Part shown: positions 10,801 to 64,000 of the stretch, piece after piece
How positions within the stretch are numbered: the first letter of the stretch is position 1
Layout of the letters: each line of letters opens with the position of its first letter
Assembly: GCA_973895155.1 (NCBI GenBank)
Contig: OZ316893.1
Location: 27,786,210-27,850,209 of the forward strand
DNA: 64,000 nt
Direction: 5' to 3'
DNA from: Marsupella aquatica
Lineage: Eukaryota > Plantae > Marchantiophyta
The notes under the pieces: generated by a model
The model's database searches: none
Told to the model about the DNA's origin: nothing
Seen by the model: the letters and a program-made list of their open reading frames with translations, nothing else
Translations under genes and position numbers: made by a program

Positions 10801-11198
10801 AACAACCCCAATATGGCTGACAAACGACTCAACCGAGCACCCTCAAAGATAGGTGTCCGGGCATGTTCCTTAGCCTCCTTTCATTGTTGTTGTCCCTCTG
10901 GAATATGTTGTGGTCGTGGGTCATTTTGGGGGGCAGCTCCTTCAACACTAATGTCAGGGACACCATCTTCAACATCAGCACCAAACCAATCAACCATGAA
11001 GTCATCCATGGCTCTGTCCTGGTCATGCATGACCTGGTCATCAGTCTGAGGTGTTGCTTCCTTATCACTATGATCACTTACATCATTACTTGATGAGGAT
11101 TCATCATCCTCTGATGGTTCTCCCTCTTCTGGCATGCCCATCTCCCGATATGCTGCTCTCAACCTTCGTGGTAACATTTGTTGAGATGGTTGCACATT
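7886..11198 (-). pseudogene. CACTA transposase (TnpD; Transposase_21/DUF4218/DUF4216), frameshifted
   Basis: ORF pieces with RHVRLGLASDGVSP..SVWPVVLMNYNLPPWL, LDPMHIEGNV, LKMHDYH, FFDCQVHLLVHL..GP...RWMYWLERYM..LKGYVRNRARVEGS, FKCKWF..EPFTFPSHVEQCFY. Confidence 0.92.
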
Positions 11199-11446
11199 CT
11201 ACGCACATCACAACCAAAAAACCTCTTGATGTACATTTCACCAGGTACAACAAAAACAGACTTCAGACCATTCATTCAAGACAAATTAACAATCAGTTTT
11301 AAGGATTGATTGCATGCATTCACATTAAGAACTTAAGTGAAGGGCCACACCAAAATTATACTACTCCAAAATGAGGCCAGAGGACATGTATATAATGATA
11401 AGTGTGAAGTACACACAAGGTACAAGAGGATGTATGACATGGCTCC

Positions 11447-12600
11447 CTAATCCCACTCATAGTGTGTGAATAACTCATCTCCAGCTCTAATAGTCCTAGT
11501 GGCAAGAACTAAGCAATGGTCTTTATGATATGTTGGTCCATATGGTGCCGGCATTGGGCCATCAGTAAAAACCCACTCACAATTGGCCCTACGCTTGGGT
11601 CGAGTCCCCACAGTACTATTTATAAAGCCAGCAATATTCCCATAATGTACGGGATCACCGTCTATCACCCGCTGCTCACTATACCTTCTAGTGCTACCAT
11701 GAAAAGTATCTATCTCTAGGGCATATATTTTCCACTCAGGATGTTGTGCAAGGATCATGTTCCAGTGTCTTCTCTTGTAGATGGGTCCACCGTATGGGAA
11801 CAAAGTAGGACCCTCTCTACCACAAGCACTTGACCCACTCCCATCATCCATGACGATATCCTCACAAGCAAATACTCCATATCCGTGTCTCTCTCCAAGT
11901 GTGGAAGCTTTCACATTCCAATGTCTACCCCAAACCACAATTATCTCCTCATCATAACCGGGAAAATAAGGCAAGCCAAGAGTCATAGGATCCCAATCTT
12001 TGATGATAGAGGCACACTTGCCAGTGAATGAACAAATGCCCCACCTACCCTCAACTAGTGTTCTTGATGGGTCATTGGGTGCTCATGGCCTCCTCTTGGA
12101 CTGGGGCCTGGACCGGGGTCTTCGTGTCTCAGTGGGCACATGAGACTGTTCCTCTTCAGTCCCATGATTTGTACTGACCCCTACACCCAAGGCTTGTGAA
12201 AGTGCATTGCCTATAGCATCTAAAACTCCTTGTGATGGGACATAGGGTGGTGGTGTCACCGGTCTACGCATACTGGATCCCTATTCCATGCAAAAACCCA
12301 CAAAAAACCATGTGTAAACATTGATTCACTTATGAAAATATGAGGGAAAAAAGGCAAACAATTGAAATCCACATGTACCATATGGGGTGAAGAAGCCCCC
12401 GGAGTAAGACCCCTGTGACGTCCATATCTCTCAATATGTTGAGCACACACATAAGATTTTTGAGAAACTTGGCCCACACATCTGGTGCACTCACAAAGTC
12501 TCCGGGGAGGATCACGAGGACCGGTAACCTCAGGTTGAGGAGGAGGGGGTACATCGGAGGAGGAGTACTCACTACTGGATAGTTCAGAGGAGGAGGACAT
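11447..12600 (-). CDS. Two-exon gene: CxCxxC..H (transposase-associated Zn-domain-like) exon plus SET-domain exon; one internal TGA at 12083-12085
   Basis: SET motifs GYGVFA, GNIAGFINST and ATRTIRAGDELFTHY in ORF 11447..11986. The frame continues up to 12280. Intron 12378-12281 (ATG|GTAC..AATAG|GGA, phase 0) joins exon 12600-12379 (CECTRC..CAQHIERYG). Confidence 0.8.
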
Positions 12601-18900: not shown

Positions 18901-20580
18901 GCATGCTTGGTTGCTGCATCGGCAAGTCTTCCTTCCTTGGCCTAAACACCTGCTCAATCGTAGGGCTAACAGGTGGTTGAGGCTTCTCTGCTACCGGCCT
19001 TGGTGCTGGAGCTTCCTCGGGTGCCCTTACCTGCAGGGGAAGTACTGGGGCAAAGGTCTGACCTCTCGCATACCGGCACAACAGCGGCATGTGATAGCCA
19101 AGCCGCGACACGCTCCCCAGGCCGATTACCTGCTGCTCCTCCTTTAAGATCTTCTTCAATTGGTTGAGGAGGTACCCGTTGTAGTCCCGGCTTGGGTCTG
19201 GCCTCTCTGCCAGATAGACTTGTGCCTTGCCGATCTCTGCCCTCGGCAAGTTACAATGCATGGTCACCCGCAAGAAGTCGATCATCTCTCCTATGTGCGG
19301 GTTGGTGCAGGTGTTCCGGAAGAAGCCATTCTTCGTTGATGGCCCGGGGAACGACCGGAACTCCTTGTCAGGCAAGGTCTTCCTGGTATCAACTTTGGTC
19401 TTATTGCCTATCGGCAAGCCAAACACTTCGGCAATCACCTTGGGAGTAAGATAGAAATCCTTCCCATATATCCTCGTGGAATTGGTCTCGGGTTCCCATG
19501 ACCCCACGAATTCTAATAGGTCTGAATCCGGCACCTCCGGCTTCAGCCATGGTAATCTTACAAAGGCCTCTAAGCCGGATCCGGCCATGAAGCCTTGGTA
19601 CTTCTTGGTCTGCATGGCCGTAAAGCATGCATCCTCCTCCCGTGCAAAATGTAGTTGCACCTCCTCTGGTAGGGTTGCCGCCCAGCCTTTCCAGGTGTCA
19701 TCCCTGGTTGGAATGGCATTGATGGGATCGTCCTCCTCCTCTTCGGCTTCTCCCTGCCTCCTGCTCTGCTGCTCAGCTGGCTTCTTTGGTGCCGCCAACC
19801 TCGTTCTTTTTGTCGGGGTGGCTTCATCGTTGACGGCTCCCTTCCTCTTCATTTTGGCTCCTGTGGATGTCTCTCCTAGCACGGTTGCCTTTGTCCACCC
19901 CTCCGTGCTACCCTTCAACTCCCAGTGTATGTTGTTGTAGTGTTTGATGGCTTCTCGGATGCCGACGACTCTATCTTCGCAAAACAAAAGATCGTCGAGC
20001 TGATTGGAAGTAGGAGTCCACAAGAACTCGGCCTTGATGAGTTCGCCTCCTAAGAAAGCCGTCTTCTGCAGCTCCCACAATCGAGTGAGCTCCTGCCATT
20101 CTCGAGCTGCCCTTTCTGATTCTTCATCCTCGTAAGTCTTGATGTATTCAGTTGCCCGTTCGAATAGCATCCCCAGAAATGTGCCGCTTGATTGACGTTG
20201 CTCATACCCTCCTTAGGTCGATCGTCAGTATCTACTCTCTCCCCGAGTGCTTGCCTAAGCAGCTGACAGTAGTTGGCCTCCCGTAGTCATCTGCCTAGTT
20301 CGTGCTCGCAAATGAGCCACCATTCCCTGCAAGCGCTCCTTACCCCTCTCCTCTTTCGGTTCTTCCTCCCGTTGATCCTTCCTAGCCGCCGACGCTTAGT
20401 GCGCCCTAACCCTAATCTTGTTTTCACGCCCAGCGTCCTTACCTCCGGCCTCGGCCCGGGTTCCATAGTCGCCCCTAATTGTTTATATTTTCCTTGTTTT
20501 GTCCCTATACTAAGGTGTTTCTAGGGTACACTTCCCTTTTCCCCTTAAACTAGCCCAGTGATTCCTGACTAGGCATCACA
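15954..20580 (-). mobile_element. Solo LTR (4627 bp) of the gypsy family at 20779-28030
   Basis: TG...CA ends with an 8-bp imperfect IR (TGTGATGC / TGTGGTGC); 5-bp TSD GGGGA (15949-15953, 20581-20585). Its 5' end TGTGATGCCTAG matches the sequence starting right after the PPT at 24393. Confidence 0.88.
17006..20466 (-). pseudogene. LTR-encoded ~1150-aa protein (PMD/plant-transposon-domain-like plus long coiled coil), copy A
   Basis: ORFs 18536..20170, 17957..18391 and 17006..17908 join across nonsense codons that are sense codons (CGA, CAG) in copy B. ATG (MEPGPRPEV) lies ~115 bp inside the LTR. GLEAF..LLEFVGSWEPET..LTPKVIAEVFGLPIG motif. Confidence 0.8.
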
Positions 20581-20778
20581 GGGGATGAGGATGAGGATGA
20601 GGAGGGAGACCAAGAGGAGGAGGAGGCCCCGGTCCCCCACCCCCGCCCCCCCAAGAGCATGCAAGGGCAAGGAGAAGGCCAAGGGGAAGAAGTCAAGGAG
20701 GGGTAGGAACCAGCTTGCCGATGCCGAACGAAACTACTCCACCACAGAAAGAGAATTGGGGTAAGAAGGAGTTCACCT

Positions 20779-23700
20779 AGCCAAAGTAATAGAGGATTGG
20801 GGTAAGAAGGAGTTCACCTTTGGGGCCCCATCTATCACGTTATCCTGGGACACCAAGGATGACCGCAGGAAAAACATCAGGTAGATAGATGGGTACGACA
20901 GTGGACTGGAATCCGCCGATGAAGTACGTTGGCTAGAATGCCTCACTGACCTAACCGAAGAAAGTGTGTTTGGACCGGAAGAGCCCTCCAGCGGACTATG
21001 GCATGAACCTATGGAGAGTAACCTGGAGGAAGGTGAAGAAGAGACCAAGGATTGCTTTGCCATAGAGTCAACATTTTTAGCTTCAATTCCGGAGGAGACA
21101 CAAGAGGCGGATCGGCTAGATGAAACGGCTCGGTGGGGAGCTACACCAGAGACAATGGATTTTCCTCGGGCGTTGTGGCAAAACCGACAGGATCCACAAC
21201 GCCGTCTATCATCGGCAACAAATTAAATACCAAGGGATCGGCTTACAAGCCGATCACAAGGGCAGAACAAATTGAGGCCCTGCTAGAAGCCGGAAGAGCA
21301 CGACAGCCTGACCCTCAGGAAGCAAGAATAGATAAGATGCACGGGAAGAAACCAGAGCCGAGTCAAGAAGGGGAGCTGAGAACCAATTCAAAACCAAGCA
21401 GAACGGTAAGGGAACAGTCTATTAATAACCAGGGAGAACCTAAGTCAACCAACTCGGCTAGTACTGCCAAGATTCCAGTCTATGGAGGTATGAGACTAGA
21501 GAGGCTGGAAGCCGAGTTGGACCCAAATTTGAAGAAGCAGATTAATATGATCCAAGCACGGCAATACCGAAAGCTAGACTTAGGAGAAGGAAGGGAACTG
21601 AACTTGGGGCGGGACCTAGCACCTGAGCTTGAGAAAGAGATCAGTGAATTACTAATTGAATTTCAGGATGTGTTCGCATGGAGTCACCAAGATCTGAAGG
21701 GAGTAGACCCAAAACTAGGAGAACATCGAATCGATCTCATGTTAGGGGCCAAATCATTTCAACAATCGATTTGAAGGATGAACCCTAAGTATTCTCTGAT
21801 GGTCAAGGCTGAAATCGATAAACTAGTGGAAGCCGGATTCATCACTCCATTCCTGCATTTTGACTAGGTGTCTCCAATTATGATAGTTCCCAAGAAAGCT
21901 GGACCCGATGGTAAACCAAAGATCCGGGTTTGTCAGGATTACAGGAAGTTGAATGAGGCTACGTTAAAAGACCATTTTCCCTTACCCTTTACTGATATGG
22001 TACTAGACATGGTAGCCAATCATGAGCTATACTCATTCATGGATGGATACTCTGGTTATAACCAAATCAGGATTAGGCAGGAGGACCAAATCAAGACAGC
22101 CTTCATCACAGAATGGGGGATCTGTGTCTTCAATCGTATGCCGTTTGGACTCTGTAACGCACCAGCTATGTTCCAACGATTAATGGTGAACATTTTTCAT
22201 GACTACTTGAGAAAATTCATGGAAATCTTCATTGATGACTTTGCAGTAGTTGGGAAGGCATCGAAACATGCTAAATACCTCAGGAAGACCTTCATGAGAT
22301 GCAGAGAGGTAGGCCTCAAGTTACACCCAGATAAATGTTTCTTTGCCGTAGCAGAGGGTGTGCTACTAGGTCACAAGGTATCAAAAAAGGGCATTGAGAT
22401 TGATAAGGGTAAGCTAGCAGTGTGGCTAGATATCATGCAACCTAAGAACATAAAGGATGTGAGATCCTTCTTGGGTTGCATTGGTTATTATCGCCGGTTC
22501 ATCAAGGATTTTGCCAAGCTAGCTTTACCATTAACCAACATGCTCAAGGCAGGTGCAAACTTTGAACCTACACCAAAACGAGTGACAGCGGTAGTGGAAT
22601 TGAAGCAGATGTTAGTAGAGGCCCCAGTCATGATAGCACCAGACTGGAACAAGGATTTTCATGTCTTTGTAGATGTCTCAGGCTTTTGTATCGGCTCAGT
22701 ACTAAGTCAGTTAGATGAGAAAGGAAGGGACCATCCTATATACTTTGCAAGCCACCAGCTTGCCGATGCCGAACGAAACTACTCCACCACAGAAAGAGAA
22801 GCATTAGGAGTCATTTATTCATGTAAAAAGTTTAGGCATTATCTGCTAGGGTACAAGGTAATCTTTCATACTGATCATGAAAGTTTAAAATACCTAGTAA
22901 ATAAGCCGGAACTTACAGGCAGGGTAGCAAGATGGATTTTGCTATTACAAGAGTTTGACTACGAGTTAAAAATCAAGCGAGGAAAGCTACACGCCAATGC
23001 CGACTTCTTTTCAAGGATCACAGGTGAACCTACCACGGATTGCATCGACGATCGATTTCCCGACGAGGAGCTATTTGTTGTGGAAATAGCTGATACATGG
23101 TACCCTAAGATTTTACAATTTCTCAGCACTTCTAGATTACAGCCCGGACTAAGCCGAGAGCAAGCCGCAGTCTTTTTGCGGAAGGTCAGACAGTATCAGT
23201 GCATTAAGGGCGTGCTACACAGGCATGGAATCAGCAGCACGATTCAAAGGTGTTTGGAGGAGGGAGAGGTAAAACGAGTCTTACGAGCTATGCATGGGGA
23301 GGAGGCCGGGGGATATTTCGCTCCAGTAACCACTTCTAAAAAGATATTAAATGCCGGTTACTGGTGGCCCACCTTGCACAAAGATGTCTATAAGTTTATC
23401 AAACAATGTGATCCTTGTCAACGAGCAGGAGGACCAAGGGCGTCCACAAGACATCCACTGCATCCTATTCTACCTCTGGCACCATTTGAGAAGTGGGGTA
23501 TTGATTACATCGGACCCCTGAAACCATTGACCCATCCTCGAAGAAACAAGTACATAATCTTGGCCACGGATTATGCAACTAAGTGGGTAGAGGCCAGGCT
23601 GACAACGAAGGATGATGCAATTACTACGGCTTGATTCATGTATGAGCAGATCTTCACCAAGTATGGCGCACCCTTAGAATTAGTTAGTGATAGAGGAACC

Positions 23701-24404
23701 CATTTTCTGAATGATATAATTAGTCGTTTAAATGAGCAGTATTTAGTTAGACCTAGGCCTACTACTCCCTACCACCCAAAGGCAAACGGGTTGACAGAAC
23801 GAGCCAATGGAATTATAGGAAAAATATTAAACAAAACTGTAGCCTAGAACAAACTCGATTGGGATGATGAATTGTTTGCTGCTGTTTTTGCTTACAATTT
23901 AGCCTATCCACTACCGGTCATACACCTTTTTTCTTAACCTTTGGACAGGAAGCTCTGGTACCCATGCAACTTGAGATCCCTACATTTCAAGTTACAATTG
24001 AGGAGAGAACCTCAGAGGAGGAAAGCCTAAAGGATCGAGAATATAGATTAGAGGCCTTAGAAGAGGCAAGAATGATTTCAGCCGAGAGAGTAGAATATAG
24101 ACAGAATACCATGAAGCAGCGGTATGATAAAAGGTTGAAACTAGTTAGTATTCACACAGGAGATCTTGTATTACTTTATGACAGTAGGTATAGTAGGTTT
24201 CTGGGGAAACTTTATACTTGCTGGTTAGGACCTTTCAGGGTATCAATGAAGTTCTCTAATAGCTCTGTGCAATTGGCCAACATAACTAGAGAGGTGTACC
24301 CAGTTCGCATCCATTACGACCGCCTCAAGAAATACTATATGGACGAAGATGAAGTTGTTTGCAAGGACGCTTCACAAATAAGTGGGGAGCTATGTGATGC
24401 CTAG
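20779..24404 (+). pseudogene. pol: gypsy pol (RT, RNase H, integrase) with several stops/frameshifts
   Basis: SPIMIVPKK, QDYRKLN, DGYSGYNQI, MPFGLCNAP, FIDDF (RT); DVSG, EREAL, TDH (RNase H); CDPCQ, IDYIGP, SDRG, ERAN, WLGPF (integrase). Confidence 0.95.
24376..24389 (+). other. Polypurine tract of the gypsy element
   Basis: AAATAAGTGGGGAG, 3 nt before the TG of the 3' LTR. Confidence 0.75.
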
Positions 24405-27400
24405 CCAAGAATCACTAGGCCGGTTTACATGGTAAAAGCAGGAGTGTACCCTGGAAACACCTTAATATAGTAACAAGACAAGGAAAATATAAACAATTAA
24501 GGGTGACTATGGAACCCGGGCCGAGGCCGGAAGTAAGGACGTTAGGGGAGAGAACACGATTAGGGTTAGGGCGTGTTAAGCGTCGGCGGCTAGGGGTGAC
24601 CAACGGGAGGGAAGACAAGAGGAGGAGAGGGGTAAGGACTGCTCGCAAGGAATGGGGGCTCATTTGCAAGCACGAACTGGGCAGACGACTACGGGAGGCC
24701 AAATACTGTCAGTTGCTTAGGCAAGCACTCTGGGTGGGAACAGATACCAACGATCGAGTTAAGGAGGGTATGAGCAACGTCAATCAAGCGACACATTTTT
24801 GGGGATGCCTGTTCGAATGGGCAACTGAGTACATTGGGACTTACGAGGACGAAGAATCAGAGAGAGCAGCTCGAGAACGGCAGGAGCTTGCTCGACTGTG
24901 GGAGCTGCAGAAGTCTGCCTTCTTAGGAGGAGAACTCATCAAGGCCGAGTTCTTGTGGACTCCTACTGCCAATCAGCTTGATGACCTTCTGTTTTGCAAA
25001 GACAGAATCGTTGGCATTCGGGAAGCCATCAACCGTTGCAACGACGCGCACTGGGAGTTGAAGGGTAGCACGGAAGGGTGGACAAAGGCAACTGTGCTAG
25101 GAGAAACATCCACGGCAGCCGAGATGAAGAGGAAAGGAAACAACAACAAAGAGGCCACCCCGGCAAAAAGAACGAGGTCGGCAGCACCAAGAAAACCAGC
25201 AGAGCAGAAGAACAGGAGGCAGGGAGAAGCCGAAGAGGAGGAGGTCGATCCCATCAATGCCATTCCAACAAATGATGACACCTGGAAAGGCTGGGCGGCA
25301 ACCCTACCAGAGGAAGTGCAATTACATTTTGCATGGGAGGAGGATGCATGCTTTACGGCCATGCAGACCAAGAAGTACCAGGGCTTCATGGCCGGATCCG
25401 GCTTGGAAGCCTTCGTAAGATTACCATGGCTGAAGCCGGAGGTGCCGGACTCAGACTTATTAGAATTTGTGGGATCATGGGAACCCGAGACCAATTCCAC
25501 GAGGGTGTATGGGAAGGATTTCTATCTCACTCCCAGGGTGATTGCCGAGGTGTTTGGCTTGCCGATGGGTAATAAGACCAAGGTTGATACCAGGAAGACC
25601 TTACCTGACAAGGAGTTTCGGTCGTTCCCAGGACCATCAACAAAGAATGGCTTCTTCCGGAACACCTACACCAACCCGCACAATCGGAGAGATGATCAAT
25701 TTCTTGCGGGTGACCATGCATTGTAACTTGCCGAGGGCAGAGATCGGCAAGGCTCAGGTCTACCTGGCAGAAAGGCCAGACCCAAGCCGGGATTACAACG
25801 GGTACCTCCTCAACCAACTGAAGAAGATCTTGAAGGAGGAACAGCAGGTGATCGGCGTGGGAAGCGTGTCCCGGCTTGGCTATCACATGCCGCTGTTGTG
25901 CCGGTATGCCAGAAGTCAAATCTTTGCCCCAGTACTTCCCCTATCGGCAAGGGCACCGGAGGAGGTTTCGGAGCAGAGGCCGGCAACAGAAGAGCCCAAC
26001 CAGCATGCCAGTCCTACGATCCAGCAGGTGTTTCGGCCAAGGAAAGAAGACTTGCCGATGCAGCAATCAAGCATGCAGAATCTGCTGAAAATGCTGGAAA
26101 AGGAGAGAACGGCACCAGCAACGGCAACGGCACCAGTACAGGACACTGCCTCAGAGGCCGGCCTAAGCCGACTCAGGAGGGAAAACCCCTTTACCGGAGC
26201 CAAGGAGAGAAGGAGGCCGGAACACAAGTCGAGAGTGCGAATGTATGTGGGAGCCTCAAGCCCCGAATCGGAGGCAGAGCAGCCTAAGGCTCCTTCCCGT
26301 GGAGAGCAGAGGGAGAGGACAGCCTGGAACCCAGAGGAGGAACAAGAGCCCGTGATCTGTGAGGCCATTTTCACGGCAGGACCAGGGGAACAGAGGGGGA
26401 AGTCGGGAGTCCAAGCATTGGAGGAGGCGGTGGAGGACTACAGCAACGATAACTCCGGCTATGGGTCGGATCATCATGTTCCAGGAGTAAGGACCTGTGG
26501 CCGATTTATCCCCATGCTTCCAAGAGTAGTTCGAGGGGACCTCACTCAGCAGAGTAGCCCCGAGTCTCCCCCACCAGAGGTTGCTCCCCCGAGCTTTGAC
26601 GGCTTAAAGTAGACGGCACAAGAATTTCAGGAGCGACTTAGGGAGGAAGAGAAAGCAACCCTGGCTAGGGAGAAAAATTTACCAGGAGGAGATTGGCCGG
26701 AGGACATCAGGCAGCTTGCCGAGAAAAGAAGCAACCCTCTTGCCACCGTAGAAGAAATCCGCAAGGCGGCTTGGGAACAGAGGCCGAGGTGGTTGATGCC
26801 GATGACTTCTACTTACTCCACCTATGCTAAAGATAGAGCCATGAAGTACGGGGAGATGTGTGAGGACCTGGCGCTCAGCATCTTTAATTTGGGGAGGAGT
26901 TGGAGCAGGGACCTTTCTTCCAGAGGGAGAGGTGGGAGAAGCACCGATTAGAAGAAGCGGTGGCTTTGGAGAGAATCAAGAAGGACGAGGTCATCCGGGG
27001 GCTTAGGGAGAAGGAAGCCGAGGTGGAAGTCCAGCAGGCGGCCAAGAAAGCCCAAGATGAGCTGCTGATTAAGCGGCATGAGCTAAACATCATGCAAGGA
27101 CAATTGGATGCCGCTCAGTCTGGCAGTCAAATTATCAAGGATAAACTGACTCAGACCCAAGGAGAGTTGGCTAGCGCGGTCAAGGACAGGGAAAAGTGGA
27201 AGCAAGAGCTGAGGGATGCAGAGGAGGCCCACTTAACCGCCAACAACCGGGCCATGGTGGAGACTCAAAGAAGAGAGAGGGCGTTGAAAGGAGAGCTCGA
27301 AGATATCCGCGGAGCCCTTGAGCAGAAGGAAGCCGAGTTAGGGAAATCCTATCAAGGGATTATTGCGCTGCAGCAGGAGCTTGCGTCCCTGACGGCCAGC

Positions 27401-28030
27401 TTCAAGGATGACCTGCGTGAAAAGGACGACCAGCTCGACCAGACTTATGCCAAGATGAATAAGATGGAGTCTGTGGTCGTAGCAGAGCTCGACAAGGAGC
27501 TAAGAGCAACCCAGGAGGAGAGGGCTACCTTTAAGAAGGAATTGGAGGAAGCCCAGAAGGAATTGGGGGAAGCCCAAAAGGAGCTGAAGGAGGCGCGCAA
27601 GGACCTGGACGAGACCCAGGAGGAGTTGGAGGAAATCATGAGGAAGATGGAGAACTTACAGCGGCGGGTCGACAACCAAACAGAGCGGCTGAAGAAACAA
27701 GCCGTAGTATTTAAATGCTTGGCTTCATCAGGTCCAACTCCAATTGGGGCAACCCAGTTACCAGGGGTAGTATTGGCCGAAGGACAAGTCGAGACACTCA
27801 CCCCGGTACCGGAGGTAAGTGGCAAGGGAAAGGAACCGGCTGTCGAAATAAGGAAGAAGAAGAAGTGGAAACCTTCTGGGCTGGGTCTGGGAGTTATACG
27901 GCTTCTCAAGCCGTTGTGACCGAGAAGATTAACCCGGCACCAACCTCCGGCATCGACACGGCGATGGATCCACCAGTCCTAGGAAGTGGGTATGGCAAGG
28001 CCGGGACAACCAGTAATGAAGTCGAGGCTT
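24393..28030 (+). repeat. 3' LTR (truncated at ~3.6 kb), inverted homolog of 15954-20580
   Basis: Starts TGTGATGCCTAG; collinear with the reverse complement of ~17080-20580; similarity ends at ~28030. Confidence 0.88.
24509..28030 (+). pseudogene. LTR-encoded ~1150-aa protein, copy B
   Basis: ORFs 24503..25726, 25542..26612 and 26900..27919 are homologous to copy A; its lesions are at different positions from those in copy A. Confidence 0.8.
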
Positions 28031-32309: not shown

Positions 32310-32835
32310 TCCCTAGTCAAGGACTATTAATAACTGACGAAGGACTATGGTCAGGACTGTAGTCCTTCCCCAAGGACCTTAATAGTCCTTTCTCAAGGAC
32401 TATACTCCTTTCTCAAGGACTTTACTCCTTTCCCCAGGACTGTGCTCCTTTCTAGTCCTTTCTCAAGGACTTTACTCCTTTTCCAAGGACTCTATTCCTT
32501 TTCCGAGGACTATAGTCCTTTGTTAAGGACTCTACTCCTTTTCCAAGGACCAGAGTCCTTTCTGAAGGACTCTACTCCTTTTCCAAGGACTCTAGTCTTT
32601 TCGTAAGGACTCTAGTCCTTTTCCAAGGACTCTACTCCTTTTCCGAGGACTATAGTCCTTTCTGAAGGACTCTACTCCTTTTCCAAGGACTCTACTCCTT
32701 TTCCGAGGACTATAGTCCTTTCTGAAGGACTCTACTCCTTTTCCGAGGGACTATAGTCCTTTCTCAAGGACTATACTCCTTTTTCGAGGACTATACTCCT
32801 TTTTCAAGGACTTTAGTCCTCTTCGATCCGAGGAC
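32310..32835. repeat. ~21-bp minisatellite of palindromic AAGGAC-N5-(G/C)TCCTT units in transposase intron 1
   Basis: About 20 tandem units such as AAGGACTCTAGTCCTTTTCC. Confidence 0.92.
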
Positions 32836-33138
32836 TCCTGTTCCAAGTTTTTAAGTCGAGTGCATTGAGTACTTGAGTCCTTCCAAATTGATTCTACTCC
32901 TTCCCTAAGAACTTTAGTCCTTCACCTCTCTTGGTAGAGTCTTCCAATAAGAGCTTGGACCCTTATTGAAGGACTGTAGTTGCAGGCAGAACTGAAGTCC
33001 TTCAGTAAGTAGTAGTACCCACATACATGGGTTTTTGTGGCTGCACATTTGAGGGTATCCGTTCCTAACAGTCTTTCTAACAAAAATAATGTATGTCTTG
33101 TATATGTATAGTTCCAATTTTTTTCAGCATTTTGTGAC

Positions 33139-33425
33139 CTCGGGGGGTTAACTAAGTGTATATTTTGGGGTACCACGTGCGATCCTAGCCTAATATAAAT
33201 AGACCTATTTTATAAAGAAAATATTCCAAGAATATTCTCTATTTTAAATATTAATAACCTATTTTACTTTATAAAGGGTATATATTAAAGAATATTCTAT
33301 AAACATGAGTTTATAATACCTTCTTTTGCCTCCTACGCATATAAAATTTTTAGTTAAAATCTGTCAAAAATACATATTTTGGATCGCACGTGGTTCCTAA
33401 GATTTTTGATAATCAACCCCCCGAG
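33139..33425. mobile_element. MITE, 287 bp, 8-bp TSD, inserted in Sola2 transposase exon 2
   Basis: Ends CTCGGGGGGTT / AACCCCCCGAG; inner IR ACCACGTGCGATCC / GGATCGCACGTGGT; perfect TSD TTTGTGAC (33131-33138 / 33426-33433). Removal restores FQFFSAFCD|WCTREQ. Confidence 0.93.
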
Positions 33426-36393
33426 TTTGTGACTGGTGCACAAGGGAGCAGAATGGGGTGTCTATAGGGATGCGGTCATTTATATACTTCAAGCCATATT
33501 ACGTTCGTAAGATGAAAGACAAAAATGTTTGTTGCTGCAAACAACATGTGGAGATGGACTTACTCAAAGAGGCAGTTAACAAATTCAGGCGGCACCAGCA
33601 CAGTAAGGACTGTCCTTGTGAATGTGATACCTGTAGACCCTTGGGTGTTGTACCCATCTCTTCTTGTATGGCATCTTCAAAGTCCATAACCTCAGTTTGT
33701 GGCTGGATAGAGGAAGCTCTTTGTCATAGACTGCCTGAGACAGAGTGGCACCAAAAAGCCTGTATTATGGGTGAATGTGAAGAATGTGGAGTAGAGAAGT
33801 TGGATTGGTGCACTCAAGAGCTGGACCCTGCACATAATCAAATGATCGAATGGCAGACATTTGAATATCGTGACCTGGATGACACTACCAAATAGAAGAG
33901 AGAAAAAAAGAAAGGGGCTGAAGAGAGTGCAACAAAGAAGTCTAGGCGATTGAGGATTATTTATAAGCAAACTCCCATGGTTGATTTTAAGAGAGCAGTA
34001 ATGGATACCATGAAGACATTTATTGTGCATAACTTTCGAGCCCATTGGCAATCACAACAGTTTAGACAATGTCTGAAAATATTTCCAAGAGGGACAATTG
34101 TTTCTTCAATAGATTTCTCCGAAAATTACACTTTTTTGCCTCAGAATGAGATTCAGAGTCAACATTGGGACAATAAGCAAGTGACATTGTTAATCCATGT
34201 TACCTATAGACACAGGGAAGATGCCAATTCACTTGAAGCTGCAGTTGGTAGGCCTGTGAAAGCAGCACAGAATGCTGATAAAACTCGTGATATTATAGCA
34301 GATTACCATTTCTACATTAGTGATGATAATTGTCATGACACTCTTTTTGTGCAACACTGCATGGATGCGCACTGGGAGTGGATGGCTAATCAGGGAATTC
34401 ATGTTGATCAACACTGGGTTTGGTCTGATGGGGCGGCATCTCAGTTCAAGGCCTGCAGACCATTTTACTACGTTAGTAGGTACTACTCCCGGTTTGGTGC
34501 ACGGATGAAATGGTTCTTCCATGCCTCTGGCCATGGGAAGGGTGTTGCTGTAAGTATCTACACCCAATTCTATGCATGCCTTAGTTGGTTTCTAATGAGT
34601 GATGTATCTACTGGAATTGGATGACCAAACTTGCAGTCTAAGTAAGAAACTTTCTAATCTGTGTTTCTTGTATGCTTTAATAGGATGCTCTTGGCGGCCA
34701 CATTAAGACCGGGCTTGCAACTGAGCAACTAAAAGGCATGAATGGTCATCGTCTAGAGGGTGCATCAGATGTGGTGAAGTTTTGCAAGGACAAGTTTGCC
34801 CTTGGTCAATTGCAGGAGTATGGTGAAGTGCTGCTTGTTCGACGTATATTTTGGGAAATTCCTGTTGGCACTGTAAATAGAAGGAAGAAGTGGGATTGTG
34901 ATCCAATCAAGGATTATAGATCTTTGCACTGCTTTGATGGATTTAGTAAGAGTCTGTCAACACTGTTGCAAGTTCGGGAGCTCTGTTGTTTTTGTGTAGC
35001 TTGTGTTGATGAAGATCCAATGAATTGTGAGAACAAGGAATGGGTAGGCAAGTATCGCCTGGAGATGATCAAAGGGGTATTGCAAGTAGATGTCAGAGTT
35101 GATGTGGAGAACATGGGAGAGGGCGAAGGACGGCTTGACAACATCTCTCTACCAGAATGTGTCCAATTGGGAGATTTCTATGCATGCTGTGCAAGTCAAC
35201 CAAATGAAGATAATGTAGATTTCTACATTTATCAGTGTGAAGAGGTGCTCCACACAGTCACAAAGAGTTTCACTGATGGGTACAAGGTACAATTCAAGGC
35301 AGGGGACCTGGCCTTAAAGGGAAGGTGGTTCCAACTATATCCAGGATCAGAAAACAAGTTTGTCTTCAATTCTGCTTCTCCTTTCAGCTACTGCCATCCA
35401 GGGGAAGTAATTCACATTCGATTTGGTTTGACACCATGTGAGGTGCCCAAGGGAGGCAAGGGACGAGGTGCTAGATTTTACACACTAGATTCAGACACTT
35501 TAGAAGCAATTTATGAATCGCTGCAAGTGTAGCTTCTGTAAAACTAATGGATCATGTTGTACATGAAGACATACAGAAGGTCATTGTAGTAGGGTAGGCT
35601 ACTATTTAGCATTTCTGAGGCTCCTACACAGAGAGATTGTAAAAAAAATCTTAAATTTAATGTAAGGCTATCAGTTCTTTTCCACCTTTATTTCATTTGA
35701 GGATCAATAGTATGTTGTTAACATGTGTTGGTGGCAACCTGTCGGACAAATGGAACCAGTAAGCTTGTCTAGTGCATTGGAATGTTCATTTTTTGTGGAT
35801 TTGTCCAGGATGGGCCAAGGCTGTAGCAGCATGCAGAATAGCTTCTTTTATTAGAGCATTAGAGGACTAAATTAACCTGCGGCATTCACACAGCTCAAAT
35901 TTCCCCCGTACTAAGGGTAACTGTGGCTAATGATCTTGCTGATGATCAATATTCAGTTGGCACAAGTTGAGAGCAACTAAATGTGGCTTTGTAATCATTG
36001 GCGCTTCAGCTTTACATTGAGCTAGTTACCTTCTGATTTTTCAATATTACGTGACATCAAGCTAAGTTTCAGTCGTTGTCATACAAAATGATAGAACATC
36101 ACGGATTAAAATTTATGTACACAGCTCTTTGAATGAGAGGAACAAACTTCCAATCACCACTGGGGCTGACGATTGTTGTTGCATTATGCAAGACGTGAGC
36201 TCACATATTGACCAACAGACAAAGGAGAGACTGAATCGTGGAGTACACAAAGTGACAGAAGATAAGGTGCATAAAATGCTCATCCTGTTACAATCAAAAC
36301 TAGGCTTTGAAGGCCTCAATCCAAAACAAAGTATCATTGAAGACACAGTTCATTGAACCAACCATCCTCAAACCCCTTGCTTGTAGAGGCTGC

Positions 36394-37069: not shown

Positions 37070-37900
37070 ACGTCAAGTCCTTCCCTGAGTACTTGCAATC
37101 ATTCCCCCGGCCAGTACTTAAAGCCCTTTCCACAAGGATTTGGAGTCATTCCACAAGGACCCAGAGTCGTTCCAGGACTTTGAGTCCTTCAAAATCCTTC
37201 GATAAGGACTCAAACTCCTTTGGAGTCCTCCCACGAGGACGCGGGGTCCTTGCCCAAGGAGCCGGAGTCCTTTCTAGTCCTTTCTCAAGGACGTTTAAGT
37301 CCTTTGAAGTCCTTGCCCAAGGATTCTAAGTCCTTTCCCAAGGACTCAGAGTCCTTCCACGAGGACTCGGAGTCTTTTCCCAGGACTCTGATCCTTCCAC
37401 GAGGACTCTGACTCCTTGCCCGAGGACTCTGAGTCCTGCCCGAAGATGACTCGTAGTCCTTTACCCAGGACTTGCAGCCCTTGCCCAAGGACTCACAGTC
37501 CTTTCCCAAGTCCTTTTCCAAGGACTCGGGGTCCTTGCCCAAGGACTAGGAGTCCTTTCCCAAGGACTCTCAGTCCTTTCCCAAGGACTCTCAGTCCTTT
37601 CCCAAGTCCTTTCACAAGGACTCGGGGTCCTTCCCAAGGACTCGCAGTCCTTTCCCAAGGACTCGGGTCCTTTCCCAAGGACTCGCAGTCCTTTTCCAAG
37701 GACTAGGAGTCCAGTCCTTGCCCGAGGACCTCCGACTCCTTGCCGCCCGAGGACTCCAAGTCCTTCAAAGTCCTTCCACAAGAACTTGGGGTCCTTCAGA
37801 GTCCTTTGACAAGGACTCTATCATTGACTCTACCAAGACCCTAAGGACTGAAGCTCTTGCCCACAAACTTCAAGTCCTCACGCTAGGACTTGAACTCCTC
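37070..37900. repeat. Second array of AAGGAC-N5-GTCCTT palindromic units inside the Sola2 element
   Basis: About 30 units such as CCAAGGACTCGGGGTCCTT. Confidence 0.92.
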
Positions 37901-56619: not shown

Positions 56620-57822
56620 CTTAAGAACATCTTTTACTTCACAACTTACATCTTTGTCTAATGACATCCCTTTACTTATCGACCATTTTGTACTTAACAA
56701 AAAAATACTTAATAACATCTTTCGTAAAACATCATCTTTTACTTGACAACATCTTGGACATAAAGACATCTTTGGTGCAACGACATCTTTTATTTCACAA
56801 CATTTTTCACATAAGAACATTTTTTCTTCACGACACCTTTGGCATCACGACATCTTTTTTCTTAACGACATCTTTGGCAACATGACATCTTTTTTCTTAA
56901 AAAAATCTTTGACAACACAACATATTTTTACTTAACAAAATTGTTGGCAACATCACCTTTTTTCATGACAACATCTTTGGCAACACAACATATTTTTTCT
57001 TAACGACATCTTTTGTGCAACGCACGGGTATTGAGCCATCTTTCACATATTAATGACATATTGGGTGAAACGACACCTTTTTATTTATAACATCTTTTAT
57101 TTCACAATCACTTAGTTTGGCAAAATGACACCTTTTTCTTAACGCCATCTTTCACATAATGACATCTTTGGAAAAATGACTTCTTTTTTCTTAACGACAT
57201 CTTTTTACTTCATGACATCTTTCAGATAACAACATCTTGGGCGACACGACATCTTTTGTGCAATGCACTGATATTTTTCCTCAATGACGTCTTGGCCAAC
57301 ACGACATCTGTTTTCTCAATGACGTCTTGGCCGACATGACTCTTTTTTCACAATGATGTCTTGCCCGACACAACATATTTTCTCTCAATGACGTCTTGGC
57401 CGACATGACATCTTTTTTCTCAACGACTTCTTTGCCAACACAAGATCCTTTATCTCAATGATTTCTTGGCCGGTCACACGACATCTTTTTTATCAATGAG
57501 ATCTTGGCCAACACGACATCATTTTTCTCAACGACCTCTTGGCCAATACAACTTTTTTTCTCAACACCCTCTTGGTCGACACGACATCTTTTCTCTCAAC
57601 CAAATCTTGGCCGACATGACATCTTAGTCGACACGACATCTTTTGTTCTCAACGACATCTTGGCCGACACGACATATTTTGTTTATCATCATCATCTTGC
57701 CGACACGACATCTTTTGTTCTCAAAAATTTCTTGGGCGACACGACATCTTTCTTCTCAACAACCTCTTGGCCGGCATGACCTCTTTTGTTCTCAACGACA
57801 TCTTGGCCGTCACGACATCTTT
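56620..57822. repeat. ~34-bp minisatellite (CTTGGCCGACACGACATCTTTTTTCTCAACGACAT), more degenerate toward the 5' side
   Basis: About 17 good units at 57240-57820, AT-eroded units upstream. Confidence 0.88.
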
Positions 57823-59009
57823 TGTGCAACGCACGGGTATTGAGCTAGTGTACTTTAAAATGAGGAGAGCCTGCCCTCGGACCAAGAGATTGACAAACAA
57901 ACAGCGAGGGACGAAGACGATGAGAGCTCTGAGCAAGGAAACCCCGCCACGTGGTGCGAAACGGAATGTCTTACACCCACGCCTCTTCACAGAAAGAAAA
58001 GAGTGAAAGACAACTAGCCCTACCACTTAACAGGATCGAAACAGGGAAGGCGTCGAGACCAAACAACGATTCAAGAAACCTCCACAGGTAACAAATGATA
58101 CGATGATTCTAGCACGATCCATGCCTTCAGGAATGCTTATGTTTCGACTGTCAGTTTCTTTACGCTTTGAGCACCATCCAAATATTCTGGTGTATTCGAC
58201 TCCAGTTCTAAGTTCTCTATACCTCGAACTACTCATCCGTTTCTGCAATTCGGTTCTGAAACTGGTTTCAAGTTTTACAAATCTTGAGCTATCAATATGA
58301 GTTACTCGGTGTGATTTTTACAAAGAATTGGCTGCCTACTTCCTTCTGTTGCCAACTAAGTGAGAAAGGAGCTAGGCGCATCCATGGAGTTTTAAGGGAT
58401 CAAAATTGTGGTTGAGGGAGTACAAACATTTATGCCAGAATTAGTTATTATGGATCTACATGACTGTCGCTGTACATTGAGAAGCGATATATATCCAAGG
58501 AAAGCCTGAAGGCATCTGAAAACTTTCTGACTGTAGAATTTGCTCGTTCCAATTGCTGAACGTGCACAGCCATGAGCCTGCACACGACTGAGGCCAGGCA
58601 AAGATTTTAGTATATTATTTTCAAACCCCTCGCTAATCTCTCAGACACTTCTGCTCCCATTATAAGTCTTTTGCATCACGAGGAGATGAGTGCGATGGCA
58701 AAAATGAAGAAACTGACGAGCGCAGCTTCCCATAATTTACACAGCAAGAATGCAGAATGAACAGTGAATTGGTCCTTAAGAGAGTGGTTGGCGAGAGAAT
58801 GCACCACACCAGATCAGTGAATACTAATCGGACCGTAAGTAAGATTAACCCTAAATCTAACGGTAATCACACATATACAGGCCCCCCCAGATAACACCTA
58901 AGCGAAGGGGGAACAGACAAAGGAACAGCAAGTGGCGTATGTACACCGGATGAACGTCGTAAACTTAACACCCCCTCCCGTCCGGTAATCCATCAAATGC
59001 ACAGAGCAA

Positions 59010-59597
59010 GTGGGGAGAATGGACGTAAGCAGAGTGGGCCTGCAAGTGCTCTGGGTGTTGTTGGGTACGATAAGCTTGGTACTCAAGGTGCTGGGAGATA
59101 TGGTCGAGACTCAATTCCAGTATGTACAATGGAAGTTGAATGTGAGTGCGACTGAGGTAGAAGAGCACCAGGGCGAGAGAGAGGACGAGCCACAGATAGG
59201 GGAGCAGGTCAAACAAGTAATGGTGAAAGTCACCCGAGCGCCTGATGTACAGGGTGCACAGCACACGATACAGCCAGTTGTGCCAACATCCCGCTACTTC
59301 AGTGACCATACCACAAGGCGAAAGTACTATGCAGTGGTGCGGGGATATGTTCCAGGCTTGTATGATTCCTGGGAGGACTGTGAGCCACAAGTAAAGGGGT
59401 ATAAGGGTCAGGTGTACAAGTCCTTCAAGTCGAGAAGCGAGGCAGAACGATACTTGCAGGAGAAGTTGCAGCGAGCAGGGGACCACGCAGTCCATGGGCA
59501 CCGATTTCGAAGCATGGGGCAAGGCAATTTTGGTGGTCAGCTATATAGATGTGAATACTGCTTAGAGGTATATCACGATGCTACGCATCCTGAGTAG
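59010..59597 (+). CDS. Antisense accessory ORF of the copia element: N-terminal hydrophobic segment plus RNase H1 N-terminal hybrid-binding (Cauli_VI) domain
   Basis: KYYAVVRGYVPGLYDSWEDCEPQVKGYKGQVYKSFKSRSEAERYL matches the HBD consensus (YYAV..G...GIY..W..C..QV.G.....YK.F....EA). The intact 195-aa ORF fills the pol-PPT gap. Confidence 0.85.
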   Translation: MGRMDVSRVGLQVLWVLLGTISLVLKVLGDMVETQFQYVQWKLNVSATEVEEHQGEREDEPQIGEQVKQVMVKVTRAPDVQGAQHTIQPVVPTSRYFSDHTTRRKYYAVVRGYVPGLYDSWEDCEPQVKGYKGQVYKSFKSRSEAERYLQEKLQRAGDHAVHGHRFRSMGQGNFGGQLYRCEYCLEVYHDATHPE

Positions 59598-62500
59598 CTG
59601 CGTTACCCAGGGTAGGTAGAATGTCGCGCAGGGACTTCATGCCAAGGAATTCACGATGTTTCTCAAACTTCCATCTTGGAAGGGATTTTGTAAGGATATC
59701 TGCAGGTTGCTCTGCAGTGGGAATGTACTTAAGCGTCACTTCTCCTTCCAGGACTCTTTCCCTGATGTAATGGTGCTGGAGTTCGATGTGCTTGGTCCAA
59801 GCATGGAAGATGGGGTTCTTCGCCAAATTAATTGAGCCTTGGTTGTCGCAATGTAGGTTTAGATGAGCATCTTGCAAGGTGGGTTGACTGGCCACCGACA
59901 GATTTGAAATCACCTCCTGATTTTGGCAATTCAATGCCACCTGAATTTCTGGGATGAAGCTCAACTCTGAGAGCAGACGCCTAAGGAAGACAGCTTCTCG
60001 AGCTCCTTCCGATAGGGCTCTGTACTCAGCTTCAGTTGTACTCTGTGAGACCGTTGCTTGTCGTTTGCTCGCCCAAGTAACAGTGCCCCCAGCAAATTGG
60101 AACACATAGGCCCCAATGGATCTTCGAGTGTCTTTGCAAGCACCATGGTCTGAGTCAGTGTAGCCTGAGAGAGACAAAGTTCCAGTTCTCTGGAAGAGTA
60201 AGCCGAAATCAATGGTGGATTTGATGTATCTGAGAACAAGCCTTGCAGCATCCATGTGTTTTTGTTGTGGAGATGACATAAATCTGCTGAGAATCCCCAC
60301 CGCATACGCCAAATCCGGTCTGGTGTTAGTTAAGTAGATCAACTTGCCAACTAACTTGCAGTAGTGAGTGGCATCCACGTCAGGTGATAGCGTATCAGCC
60401 GATACATCAAATCCTTCGGGTAGAGGAGTCGCTGCTCCTTTGCAGTCTTGCATTTCAAATTCCTCCAGGAAGCTTTGGCAGTAGTCACGTTGATGGATGA
60501 ACATTCCATCGGCCACATCTACAAAATCTATTCCCAAATACCTGGTGACTTTGCCCAGATCCTTCATTTTGTACTGTTAGCTGAGTTGTGCTTTGACCTC
60601 ATCAATTTTGGCATCGTCATTGCCAGTGATGAGTAGGTCATCAACGAAAAGAAGCAGAAGAACAATTTTCCCTCCTTCGTTGATGAAGTACAAATTATGA
60701 TCAGCAGTGCTCCGGGTCCACCCTTTTGAGCGAAGGAACCGATCAACTTCCTCATACCATGCACGCGGGGACTGCTTTAAGCCATAGATGGATCGATTTA
60801 GCTGGCACACAAGGTGTTCGGATCCTGGGACCTCAAATCCTGGTGGTTGCACCATGTAGATTAGTTCCTTGAGCTTGCCGTTCAAGAAAGCCGTGATGAC
60901 ATCCATTTGGCTGATGGACCAGCCAAGAGCTGCAGCGAGTGCAATAACCAGTCTAATGGTTGACCACTTGACAATCGGTGCGAAAGTGTCCTCAAAATCA
61001 ACTCCAAAGCGCTGTTCAATACCACGAGCCACCAGGTGAGCTTTCAGTCGAGTGCGAGTGGGGTTTACTTCTGGCTTCGCCCTATACAGCCACCTAGCAG
61101 AGATGGCCCTCTTTCCTGGTGGGAGTGCAGTGAGGACCCATGTCTCATTTTCGATCAGAGAATCAAATTCTTCTTTCATAGCTGCATTCCACTGAGGGTC
61201 CAAACGGGCTTGCTGGAATGAGATGTTTTCATTCACAGGGTCGGTAGTCTCGACTAGGCAGACATCAGGGTTGTTGGGTCGAAAATCCAACACGTAATCT
61301 TGGCGTAGATGAACTGGGAGTTCCCTTGCACGAGATGACTGCCTGCGAATTGGGAATGGCAATGGTAATGTGCTCGTAGGGGTAGAGTCAGCTGGTGCGG
61401 GCTCAACTTCAAGAGAAGAATCGACTGGCTCAAGTGGCTCTAAGTTGGAGTCAGTACTATTACCAGGATCTACAGGCACAGAGTCGGGAGATGCAGGTTC
61501 AGATGCAGAGTAGGAATTTTGTTCCTGTGTTGCAGGAGAGATATAAATGGACTGAGCCGGTGAAATCAATAGTAATTCTGCAGTGGCTTGAGATGGTTTG
61601 ATGTTGAAGTCAAACATCTTTAACTCATTGAACACAACATCACGACTGATGTAGATTTTTCTTTTGATAGGATCATAGCACCTGTATGCTTTCGATTTCT
61701 CGTCATATCCCACCAATGCAGTCCGAATGGACTTTGCTGACAGCTTATGTCTCAGTTCACTAGGAACATGAACATACGCCAGGCATCCAATAATTCTTAG
61801 ACTAGACAGGTCAGGCTTGGCATTGTATAATTGCTGGAAAGGTGTGGAGGAGGTCAAAGAGGAAGTGTCACACCTGTTGAGCACATACGTGGCTGATTGA
61901 ATGAGCTCATCCCATAGGAACGTGGGAGCTCCACTCGCAATGTGGGCGCTGCGTGCTGCTTCGAGCAGTGTTCGGTTTTTCCTTTCTGCTACTCCATTTT
62001 GCTGAGGTGTGCGAGCCGCTGTGAGTTGCCTCTTGATCCCTTGTCTGTCGCAAAATTGGCAGAATTCGTTGGACAAGTATTCACCTCCTCGATCTGATCG
62101 AACACATTGAATTTTGCTGTCGAATTCATTTTCGACCATAGCTTTAAAGTCTTTGAACTTTAAGAAGGCTTCACTTTTGGCTTTCAGGAAATACACCCAT
62201 GTGTAGCGAGAGAAATCATCCGTGAATGTAAGCAAATATTTTGCTTTAGAAAGAGATGAAACAATGAAGGGGCCACAGAGATCCGTATGAACCAATTGCA
62301 GTGGTTTGGTTGACCTGTTGGCAGATTTCTTGGGTATGCGCTCTCGATGTTGTTTCCCCATGATGCATGTATCACAGACATGATCCTCCAATGGCAGCTT
62401 GGGCAGACCTTCAACCAACTCGTTTGAAGACATGTTGTAAACTCTGCGGAAGTTCACGTGACTGAGCCTTCGGTGCCATAGCTCAAGAGGTGACACATCG

Positions 62501-64000
62501 CTTTGTGTCTCACTGTTAGCATTGCTCGTAGGTGTGTTGGATGGAGGACTGCTGGCATGCTCGTCCGTGCTGTCTACTAATGAAATGTGTATTTCAGAGC
62601 ACAGCTTGGCATTGCCCTGAATAGACGAGTCTAGTCGGTATAGACTATTGTGTCTATCCCTTGTTGCCCTCAGAAAGATCTTATTAGGATCTTCTTTATC
62701 CAACACGTAGCAATGACGGGAATTAAATAATACATTGTGGCCTTCATCAGCCAACTGACCAACTGACAAGAGATTGCGAGTCATACCAGGCACGTACAAA
62801 ACCTTTTTGACCACTTTATTTCCATTGAACTTAGTGCTGCCTCTTCCAGCAACTGGAATGCGTGCACCAGAGGCAGTAGTTACATTGGAGGTGGATGCGT
62901 ATGGAACAACGTGATTAAGAGTACTCTTGTTCCCAGTTACATGAGTACTAGCACCTGAATCAACTAGCCAATCTTGACTAGCTTTGAATTCTGTGAGATT
63001 AACTTCTAAGATGCTTCTGTCGGGATCGCTGTCGGACTCACATTCTTCAGGTTCCACCGTCTCAGCCACGTTTGCATGGTGCATGCCTTTCTTAATGTCC
63101 GCATGCTTGATTTGTAGGCCCTTGATTTGGCTCTCAATCTTCTTGAGGCATTCCCCTTCCCAGTGACCAATATGCCCACAGAAATTGCAAGCTTCGGTCT
63201 TCCTGGCTGAAGAAGGTGCGCTTCGTCCCCGTCCACGATAGTTGTTTCTGCCTCTGCCACATCCACGAAGAGGGCCACCACGCTGGGTGTTGTAGCTAGT
63301 CATCAGTGCTTCTTCGGTGTCGTTGCTCTGTAAAGCCCGTTGCATTTCTTCGGCCTCAAGGTGACCAATAAGGTCTGAGAATGACAGTGTCGGGAACTGA
63401 TGCAGCAAGGTACCAAACGACATGATAAATGGCTTCCAGCTCGCAGGTAATCCTTTGAGAGTGGTGCGGATTAGTTCCTTATCTTCTATAACAAAATTGA
63501 TGTCACCTAGCTGCATCACCAAGTTGTCAATCTCACGAATGTATTCCTCAACACTACTCCCTTCGGACATGTGCATCTTAGACAGTTTATCCCTGAGGAT
63601 GAGCTGCTTACCCATGGCCGCGGATTCAAAACGCGATTTCAGCTGTAGCCATATCTTGGCAAGATCGTCAATGTACTTCTTCACGATAGGGAAGATGTGA
63701 TCCTTGACCGTCTGAGAGAAGATGTAGATTGCTCTTTCCTTCTTTTCTTCGATTTGCTCTGGCGTGAGTTGCATTGGCTTCGTGGGGTCTGGACTGACCA
63801 GCTCGAACCACACTTTATCCTTGCGGAACTGTCGCTCCACCTTGAAGGACCACCCGATGAAATTCTTACTGCCATCGAGCTTGTCCTTGTCTGCATAGAC
63901 GAGGCCTTTGTCAAACTCGTAGTGGACATTCTGAGCTGCAGGAGGTCCAGTGCTTGGCGATGCTTGCTGTGTGCTGCTGCCTGGTGAGGCAGCTTGGGAG
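59581..64000 (-). CDS. pol: copia gag-pol polyprotein with a single in-frame TAA at 60577-60579
   Basis: LDGSKNFIGW (gag), CNFCGHIGHWEGEC knuckle, WLVDSGAS protease, LWHRRLSH, HTDLCGP/RSDRGGEY/AERKNR integrase, YGLKQSPRAW/FVDD RT, GYTDSD/STTEAEY/CDNQG/ADILTK RNase H. The two ORFs are in the same frame. Confidence 0.96.

Follow-up and report, generated by a model that had tools for sequence, protein, structure and literature searches.

Does an open reading frame (ORF) that lies antisense in a Ty1/copia retrotransposon of the liverwort Marsupella aquatica belong to that element as a gene, and if so, what could a hybrid-binding domain without a nuclease do for it? Antisense ORFs have been known in plant LTR retrotransposons for decades without an assigned function, and they have been described almost only in gypsy elements. 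The ORF considered here lies near the right end of the window, the whole 64,000 nt stretch of contig OZ316893.1 that was analyzed. We find it very probable that the element has in it a functional accessory gene; what the gene does can be proposed more tentatively.

The last 5.3 kb of the window are the 3' part of a minus-strand Ty1/copia element (Table 1). Its gag, protease, integrase and RT domains are read in frame, and the 5' end of this frame, like the 5' LTR, lies outside the window, beyond position 64000. Pfam matches along the frame (PF14223, PF22936, PF13976, PF00665, PF25597 and PF07727, then a weak RNase H-like match with an E-value of 0.039) give the domain order gag, protease, integrase, RT and RNase H that is characteristic of Ty1/copia, and a polypurine tract (PPT) followed by a TG...CA 3' LTR is also as expected of a copia element. 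Contig depth is raised over 58706-58973, and the contig of the unique flank ends at 58734. Because of the in-frame stop in RT, this copy is likely to be non-autonomous, although its antisense ORF stays open; among the contigs compared, the stop is apparently private to this copy. In the pol RNase H (window 59800-59900, minus strand), 57 residues separate the EAEY helix from the CDN strand, a spacing that is 30-33 residues in 86 of the 96 pols scored. Similar spacings of 47-57 residues were found in P0016, P0017, P0021 (Calypogeia), P0025-P0027 and P0080, and the insertion of 24-26 residues is typical of the clade. A 35-bp tandem repeat with very high contig depth occupies 56785-57856, approximately 850 bp from the LTR end.

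Table 1. Features of the copia element and its antisense ORF (window positions)
Feature	Position	Strand	Basis and remarks
gag-protease-integrase-RT frame	60577..64000	-	open at window edge; in-frame stop 60577-60579 in this copy
pol C-terminal part: end of RT and RNase H with clade-typical insertion	59581..60567	-	ORF reading, Pfam, alignment
Antisense extra ORF, 192 aa from ATG to stop	59019..59597	+	ORF reading; selection; homologs
Tail-to-tail overlap of antisense ORF and pol, 17 bp, both stop codons inside	59581..59597	.	sequence
Short hydrophobic segment, aa 6-19, opening predicted helix aa 3-46	59034..59075	+	hydropathy, moment, AlphaFold
RNase H1 N-terminal hybrid-binding domain (HBD, PF01693), aa 102-145	59322..59453	+	profile, alignment, fold
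H156-x4-H161...C178-x2-C181 module; helix, beta-hairpin, helix in model	59484..59561	+	alignment, model; candidate zinc site
176-aa shadow ORF opposite the antisense gene	58965..59495	-	not a gene (sibling differences)
Polypurine tract (PPT)	58971..58979	-	sequence; abuts LTR edge TG at 58970
3' LTR candidate, 266 bp, TG...CA	58705..58970	-	ends read from sequence; presumed antisense-promoter site

The antisense ORF is the single plus-strand ORF in the interval from the PPT to the pol stop, and thus occupies the aORF-3R position, antisense between pol and the 3' LTR. An initial annotation of this DNA had described an open plus-strand frame antisense to copia pol, beside a PPT and overlapping pol by 17 bp, and the ORF reading bears out each of these points. 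The length of 195 aa given there holds only when codons are counted from a GTG at 59010; from the ATG, the protein has 192 aa. The start given, position 58971, belongs to the PPT and to no codon of the ORF, which is preceded by a stop at 58986-58988. As just 17 of its 579 bp are shared with pol, pol cannot hold the frame open. When the bases of the 630-bp region were shuffled 5000 times, just one shuffle gave at least 192 open codons on one strand, and this, together with purifying selection in the ORF frame between sibling copies (below), indicates more than a chance frame. Three ATGs lie within 80 bp upstream of the ORF start (window 58939-58999) and open frames of 4, 12 and 52 codons, the last of which overlaps the antisense ORF out of frame; these upstream ATGs could damp its translation. 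RNA structure predicted at the pol/ORF overlap and in the leader was unremarkable (z -0.39 to 0.43).

Evidence that the frame is maintained comes from sibling copies. The element was found as contigs in four public runs. Members of a near-identical family differ at 3-4 sites over approximately 750 bp, and in run X1 the depth of this family was 85.1 compared with 17.2 for the unique flank, a ratio of approximately 5 that is not to be read as a copy count. A more diverged sibling contig spans both the ORF and pol, with 65 differences in 446 bp. Within the ORF, 43 differences were scored (39 from 59250-59560, where there are 57, and four beyond), of which 30 fall at third codon positions and none of which creates a stop. 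The resulting dN of 0.12 and dS of 0.84 give a dN/dS of approximately 0.14 (Fisher p 4e-7, for stretches believed complete), in line with the ratio below 1 that would be expected of a gene; as this is one sibling pair scored by simple counting that takes no account of transition bias, the ratio may be somewhat low. The excess at third positions is independent of the transition-bias issue. In four other frames, the sibling changes are badly tolerated. Two minus-strand candidates were rejected as selected genes: the frame that shares its wobble positions with the ORF is just as silent in its pattern of changes, yet stops close it, and in the 176-aa shadow ORF the sibling differences alter 35 of 37 codons and add three stops. 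Two further contigs with approximately 80% identity cover the HBD, and the loose ends of one of them, judged by eye, read in frame as family motifs. The ORF is therefore retained in other copies under purifying selection, which is a property of aORF-3R genes. The sibling contig has 57 differences in 59250-59560 and only 8 in 59561-59695; the low divergence of the latter stretch could reflect either a constraint in cis where the two genes overlap or recombination between families.

The protein encoded by the ORF contains an RNase H1 HBD, as the initial annotation had proposed from the letters. A Pfam search gave PF01693 at aa 102-145 (E-value: 5.3e-19; 68.6 bits compared with a cut-off of 21), and this region aligns with the N-terminal domains of yeast and human RNase H1. 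An earlier AlphaFold model from six sequences reproduced the HBD poorly (mean pLDDT 59.6) and its fold search was without a match. A model of aa 85-192 built on a 14-row alignment has a mean pLDDT of 81.8 and matches the human HBD-hybrid complex 3bsu with an rmsd of 0.8 Å over 45 residues (E-value: 1.7e-3) and 1qhk with a Z of 5.0; further fold matches include several models of caulimovirus TAV and of viral RNase H. The RNase H catalytic domain is absent: only 47 residues follow the HBD, and PF00075 was found neither in the ORF nor in its homologs P0012, P0141 and P0279. Hybrid binding by human RNase H1 is impaired by the substitutions W43A and KK59/60AA (PMC10639055). Across the eight rows of a family alignment, the equivalent of W43 (W118) is kept in all eight members and that of K59 (K134) in seven, while the K60 position is Ser in all eight. 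Ser also occupies this position in RNase H-linked HBDs such as P0006, but affinity may differ. A basic patch (RRK, aa 100-102) precedes the HBD, and this region is KR-rich in the homologs.

The HBD is flanked on both sides by conserved parts. At the C-terminus, the initial annotation had noted CxxC..H..H, and this we reject as a conserved motif, since the later histidines H186 and H190 are kept in one and two of the eight aligned members, respectively. The conserved pattern is instead H-x4-H...CxxC, with H161, C178 and C181 kept in 8/8 and H156 in 7/8. The model sets these four residues around a hairpin, and they are candidate zinc ligands. No known fold or Atlas cluster was matched by the C-terminal module, a result that shows neither novelty nor absence. 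At the N-terminus, a helix is predicted for aa 3-46 (AlphaFold pLDDT 80-94), in the order of a basic residue, 13-14 hydrophobic residues and an amphipathic second half. The hydrophobic N-terminus is present as first quoted and is common to the four homologs with long N-termini (P0011, P0012, P0004 and P0279). The Kyte-Doolittle maximum over 19 residues is 1.98 in the ORF, 1.67-2.61 in four of the seven homologs scored, and 1.21, 0.47 and 0.12 in three shorter homolog records. This helix may serve as a short anchor in a membrane, or for packing or oligomer formation; 13-14 residues are short for a membrane span.

Homologs of the same build were found beyond the near-identical family. A protein search gave 3 matches among 31 candidates, and a profile search gave 9 among 3240, five of the nine being of family length. 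Among the 150 best matches from a search of 1.84 billion representatives, six (P0001, P0002, P0005, P0141, P0146 and P0279) run from the HBD into the C-terminal module. P0141 is a protein of Calypogeia fissa, and the remaining homologs are Logan proteins. In the 8-row alignment, the homologs are 29-55% identical to the query. Some of the records are cut short or split (P0005, P0141, P0151, and P0007 with P0146). As far as these proteins and the bridging sibling contig show, other members keep the ORF. A recent capture of a host RNase H1 gene, one of the findings that the initial annotation had named as overturning it, is excluded because the nuclease is missing, the flanks are family-specific and the family is widely spread in identity. 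One alignment was discarded in which the second HBDs of tandem proteins had landed on the C-terminal columns. Some profile hits (P0210, P0240, P0263, P0226, P0232 and P0257) combine HBDs in tandem with helicases of the UvrD and Pif1 types in one protein. A scan of viral contigs confirmed none of 60 pattern matches, and a scan of metagenomes confirmed 1 of 54, with the HBD only.

The relatives of its pol suggest that the element belongs among those of liverworts. Its best-ranked named relative is from Calypogeia fissa (45% identity), with angiosperm and Riccia records next, and in an RT tree (48/49 rows) the element falls in a supported 8-row clade of which Calypogeia fissa is the sole named member. 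The Ty1/copia clade that carries the ORF is thus likely to be one of liverworts. The ORF homolog P0012 and the pol P0016 both derive from a 3896-bp contig, where approximately 0.02 such matches would be expected, and P0016 is 63% identical to the window pol and among its two nearest RTs. A tail-to-tail overlap of 20 nt could encode the C-termini of P0012 and P0016; this is the longest of 1000 ORF-pol pairs, 944 of which allow no such overlap. The 17-nt overlap register of the window itself also accommodates the ends of P0004 and P0146. We infer that P0012, the only one of the homologous proteins so linked, is tied to the copia pol P0016. In an HBD tree (54 rows), eight of the nine family domains group together with weak support (91/71), and the HBD of P0279 stands apart, so that P0279 may have arisen independently or be only very distantly related. 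As the tree has only 45 columns, the donor of the HBD is not nameable. The nearest HBDs outside the family (67%) are RNase H-linked or stand-alone, and are not those of P6.

Compared with known systems, the ORF combines a familiar position with unfamiliar content. Grande (gene23), RIRE2, Retand, Ogre and PvRetro13 are known to carry an antisense ORF in the interval from pol to the 3' LTR, with function unknown according to PMC7264820, and the ORF shares with these aORF-3R (eORF-3'R) genes its site, its orientation relative to gag-pol and its maintenance under selection (PMC7264820). Known aORF-3R genes are, in the portions of PMC6317226 and PMC11963269 available, mainly from Ty3/gypsy elements and encode Transposase_28, plant mobile domain, SMC-like or unknown domains; in contrast, the copia ORF carries an RNase H1 HBD and overlaps pol without a spacer. 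For copia, the accessible part of the REXdb survey gives eORF-3'R in 1% of SIRE elements and in none of Bryco, Lyco and Gymco, with ambiguous cells for Bianca and Ikeros, and PF01693 is not among the domains it reports from five or more elements (PMC6317226). That survey used a cut-off of 250 codons (PMC6317226) and would therefore miss an ORF of 192. The SIRE env-like ORF (eORF-3'F) is likewise an extra ORF that a copia element carries between pol and the 3' LTR, and it too has a hydrophobic segment. It is described as sense, long, highly divergent and without a conserved known domain (PMC6317226), whereas the ORF described here is short, in the opposite orientation and built around an HBD.

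The caulimovirus protein P6 (TAV) is similar in that a reverse-transcribing plant element expresses a separate PF01693 gene without a nuclease. P6 is approximately 520 aa in length, sense-encoded and equipped with D-I, translation-reinitiation and inclusion-body domains (PMC3836500); the part shared is the 44-aa domain, and the ORF, of 192 aa and with matches covering the HBD part, is not itself a P6/TAV gene. It resembles RNase H1 in the sequence and fold of the HBD and in the W43 and K59 equivalents, and differs from it in lacking the catalytic domain, in the Ser at the K60 position and in the hydrophobic helix and H/H/C/C module that flank the HBD. The same domain is also known from a transposon in capE (pfam01693) of a Pleurotus ostreatus Helitron (PMC4289320); there, a single large copy of the DNA transposon holds a single captured gene, for which selection or family-wide retention is not reported in the text available (PMC4289320). 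No HBD in a retrotransposon is named in the available portions of PMC11963269, PMC4408406, PMC6338049, PMC11728184, PMC5670102 or bioRxiv 10.1101/572842. Searches of open-access literature, in which subscription papers are not covered, found no copia element reported with such a gene, and REXdb's large supplements may hold rarer or shorter copia eORFs. What appears new here is the occurrence of an antisense aORF in copia together with a domain defined by its ligand.

How might such a gene serve its element? As only 48 bp, the PPT included, separate the LTR from the ATG, the message would begin in the 3' LTR, from an antisense promoter, and would be complementary to genomic RNA. By means of its N-terminal helix, the small protein would be expected to attach to a membrane or to self-associate, and once clustered it would display a duplex-binding domain free of nuclease. 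Its target could be the RNA:DNA hybrid made in reverse transcription, or else the duplex that genomic RNA forms with the antisense message, and such duplex intermediates would be held at the site of particle assembly, as the related P6 domain serves caulimovirus replication. A membrane- or self-associated HBD protein that supports replication by binding the duplex nucleic acid of its own element is the explanation that we tentatively prefer. The conserved equivalents of W43 and K59 and the close fit to 3bsu are in favor of it, and retention under selection across elements that are 63% identical in pol points to a benefit to the element. In cells, one HBD is diffuse and three in tandem form foci, a single domain being weak (PMC10639055); this need to multiply the HBD fits a protein clustered by a membrane or a helix. 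Against the proposal stand the Ser at the K60 position in every aligned member, the hydrophobic core, which is short and was judged by hydropathy alone, the three upstream ATGs, the truncated or split homolog records and the fact that most copia elements replicate without such a gene. Reverse transcription takes place inside Gag particles, and access is the weak point, since a separately made, membrane-bound protein would have to meet a hybrid enclosed there. An extended version, in which a liverwort copia clade evolved a P6-like, membrane-tethered HBD made in trans from an antisense promoter of the LTR, in parallel to the caulimoviruses, to build a replication site and partner the RT-RNase H with its insertion (a split RNase H1 encoded by two strands of one retroelement), appears improbable as a whole.

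The same properties can be read in other ways. The protein may coat dsRNA, including the antisense/genomic duplex, and shield it from Dicer and RDR at membrane-bound siRNA bodies; expression of the gene necessarily makes RNA complementary to the genome, and the domain family is said to bind duplex RNA. HBDs reportedly prefer hybrids over dsRNA, however, and there is one HBD per chain. The HBD-like motif of P6 presumably lies at approximately aa 140-180 and would hence be cut by a deletion of aa 166-201. That deletion, in the miniTAV region overlapping the RNase H-homology part, abolishes replication of CaMV and keeps silencing suppression, which maps to and requires domain D-I (PMC3836500). 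Suppression by P6 thus needs D-I and not the region overlapping its RNase H homology, which weakens the analogy with an RNAi suppressor drawn in the initial annotation and agrees with support of replication. A dsRNA-binding domain is nevertheless named for P6 in PMC5670102, and a DRBM-like fold has been proposed for some gypsy aORF proteins (PMC11728184). On balance we would favor support of replication, and regard anti-silencing as unlikely. Improbable, in our estimate, is control of copy number, in which the antisense RNA, a non-catalytic binder or both dampen the element's own reverse transcription by blocking RNase H or trapping RNA on membranes. A nuclease-free binder could compete with RNase H, antisense regulation has been discussed for such elements (PMC7264820), and the near-identical family looks small by depth, which is not a copy count; but long-term purifying selection on the protein needs a benefit to the element lineage, and low copy number is common without such genes.

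Ranked lower again is a reader of R-loops in the nucleus or at its envelope, steering transcription or integration at the element's own loci or insertion targets. HBDs read R-loops in nuclei (PMC10639055), some gypsy antisense aORF proteins are nuclear (PMC7264820) and the basic patch ahead of the HBD would suit such a role, but the conserved hydrophobic N-terminus argues against a soluble nuclear protein. That the ORF is a functionless passenger, either a captured host or microbial gene fragment or an accidental antisense frame, is largely refuted and is the least credible reading of all. HBDs are promiscuous, occurring with RNase H and with UvrD and Pif1 helicases, a fungal Helitron captured one (PMC4289320) and some homologs are broken; yet a passenger would not be expected to show the dN/dS, third-position bias and freedom from stops found here, nor a four-part build kept down to 29% identity and a fixed overlap with pol.

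Support of replication and its rivals are open to direct experiment, because the HBD brings a solved structure, a known ligand and known point mutants to an antisense ORF. The family adds a second reverse-transcribing group, beside the caulimoviruses, that keeps an RNase H1 HBD free of nuclease, and it bears on the role of the HBD in P6 and on how retroelements handle RNA:DNA hybrids or dsRNA with accessory proteins. Given the 250-codon cut-off and the few liverwort genomes, similar small genes may be under-counted.

Other parts of the window contain further mobile-element features. At 17216-27880, a Ty3/gypsy pol region (21124-24404) lies between inverted arms of approximately 3.3 kb that are 84-90% complementary; the arms include long ORFs, the longest of 558 aa, which match no Pfam family or give weak coiled-coil hits only. 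At 7886-12082 on the minus strand, a SET-domain ORF (11447-12082, E-value: 8.6e-7) lies beside same-strand CACTA-like transposase pieces, one with DUF4218 at 8494-9324, and may be a SET gene carried by a transposon. Near-palindromic repeats of 20-21 bp form two arrays (32339-32921 and 37103-37740) that flank ORFs without a Pfam match (33413-35532) and resemble the subterminal repeats of DNA transposons.
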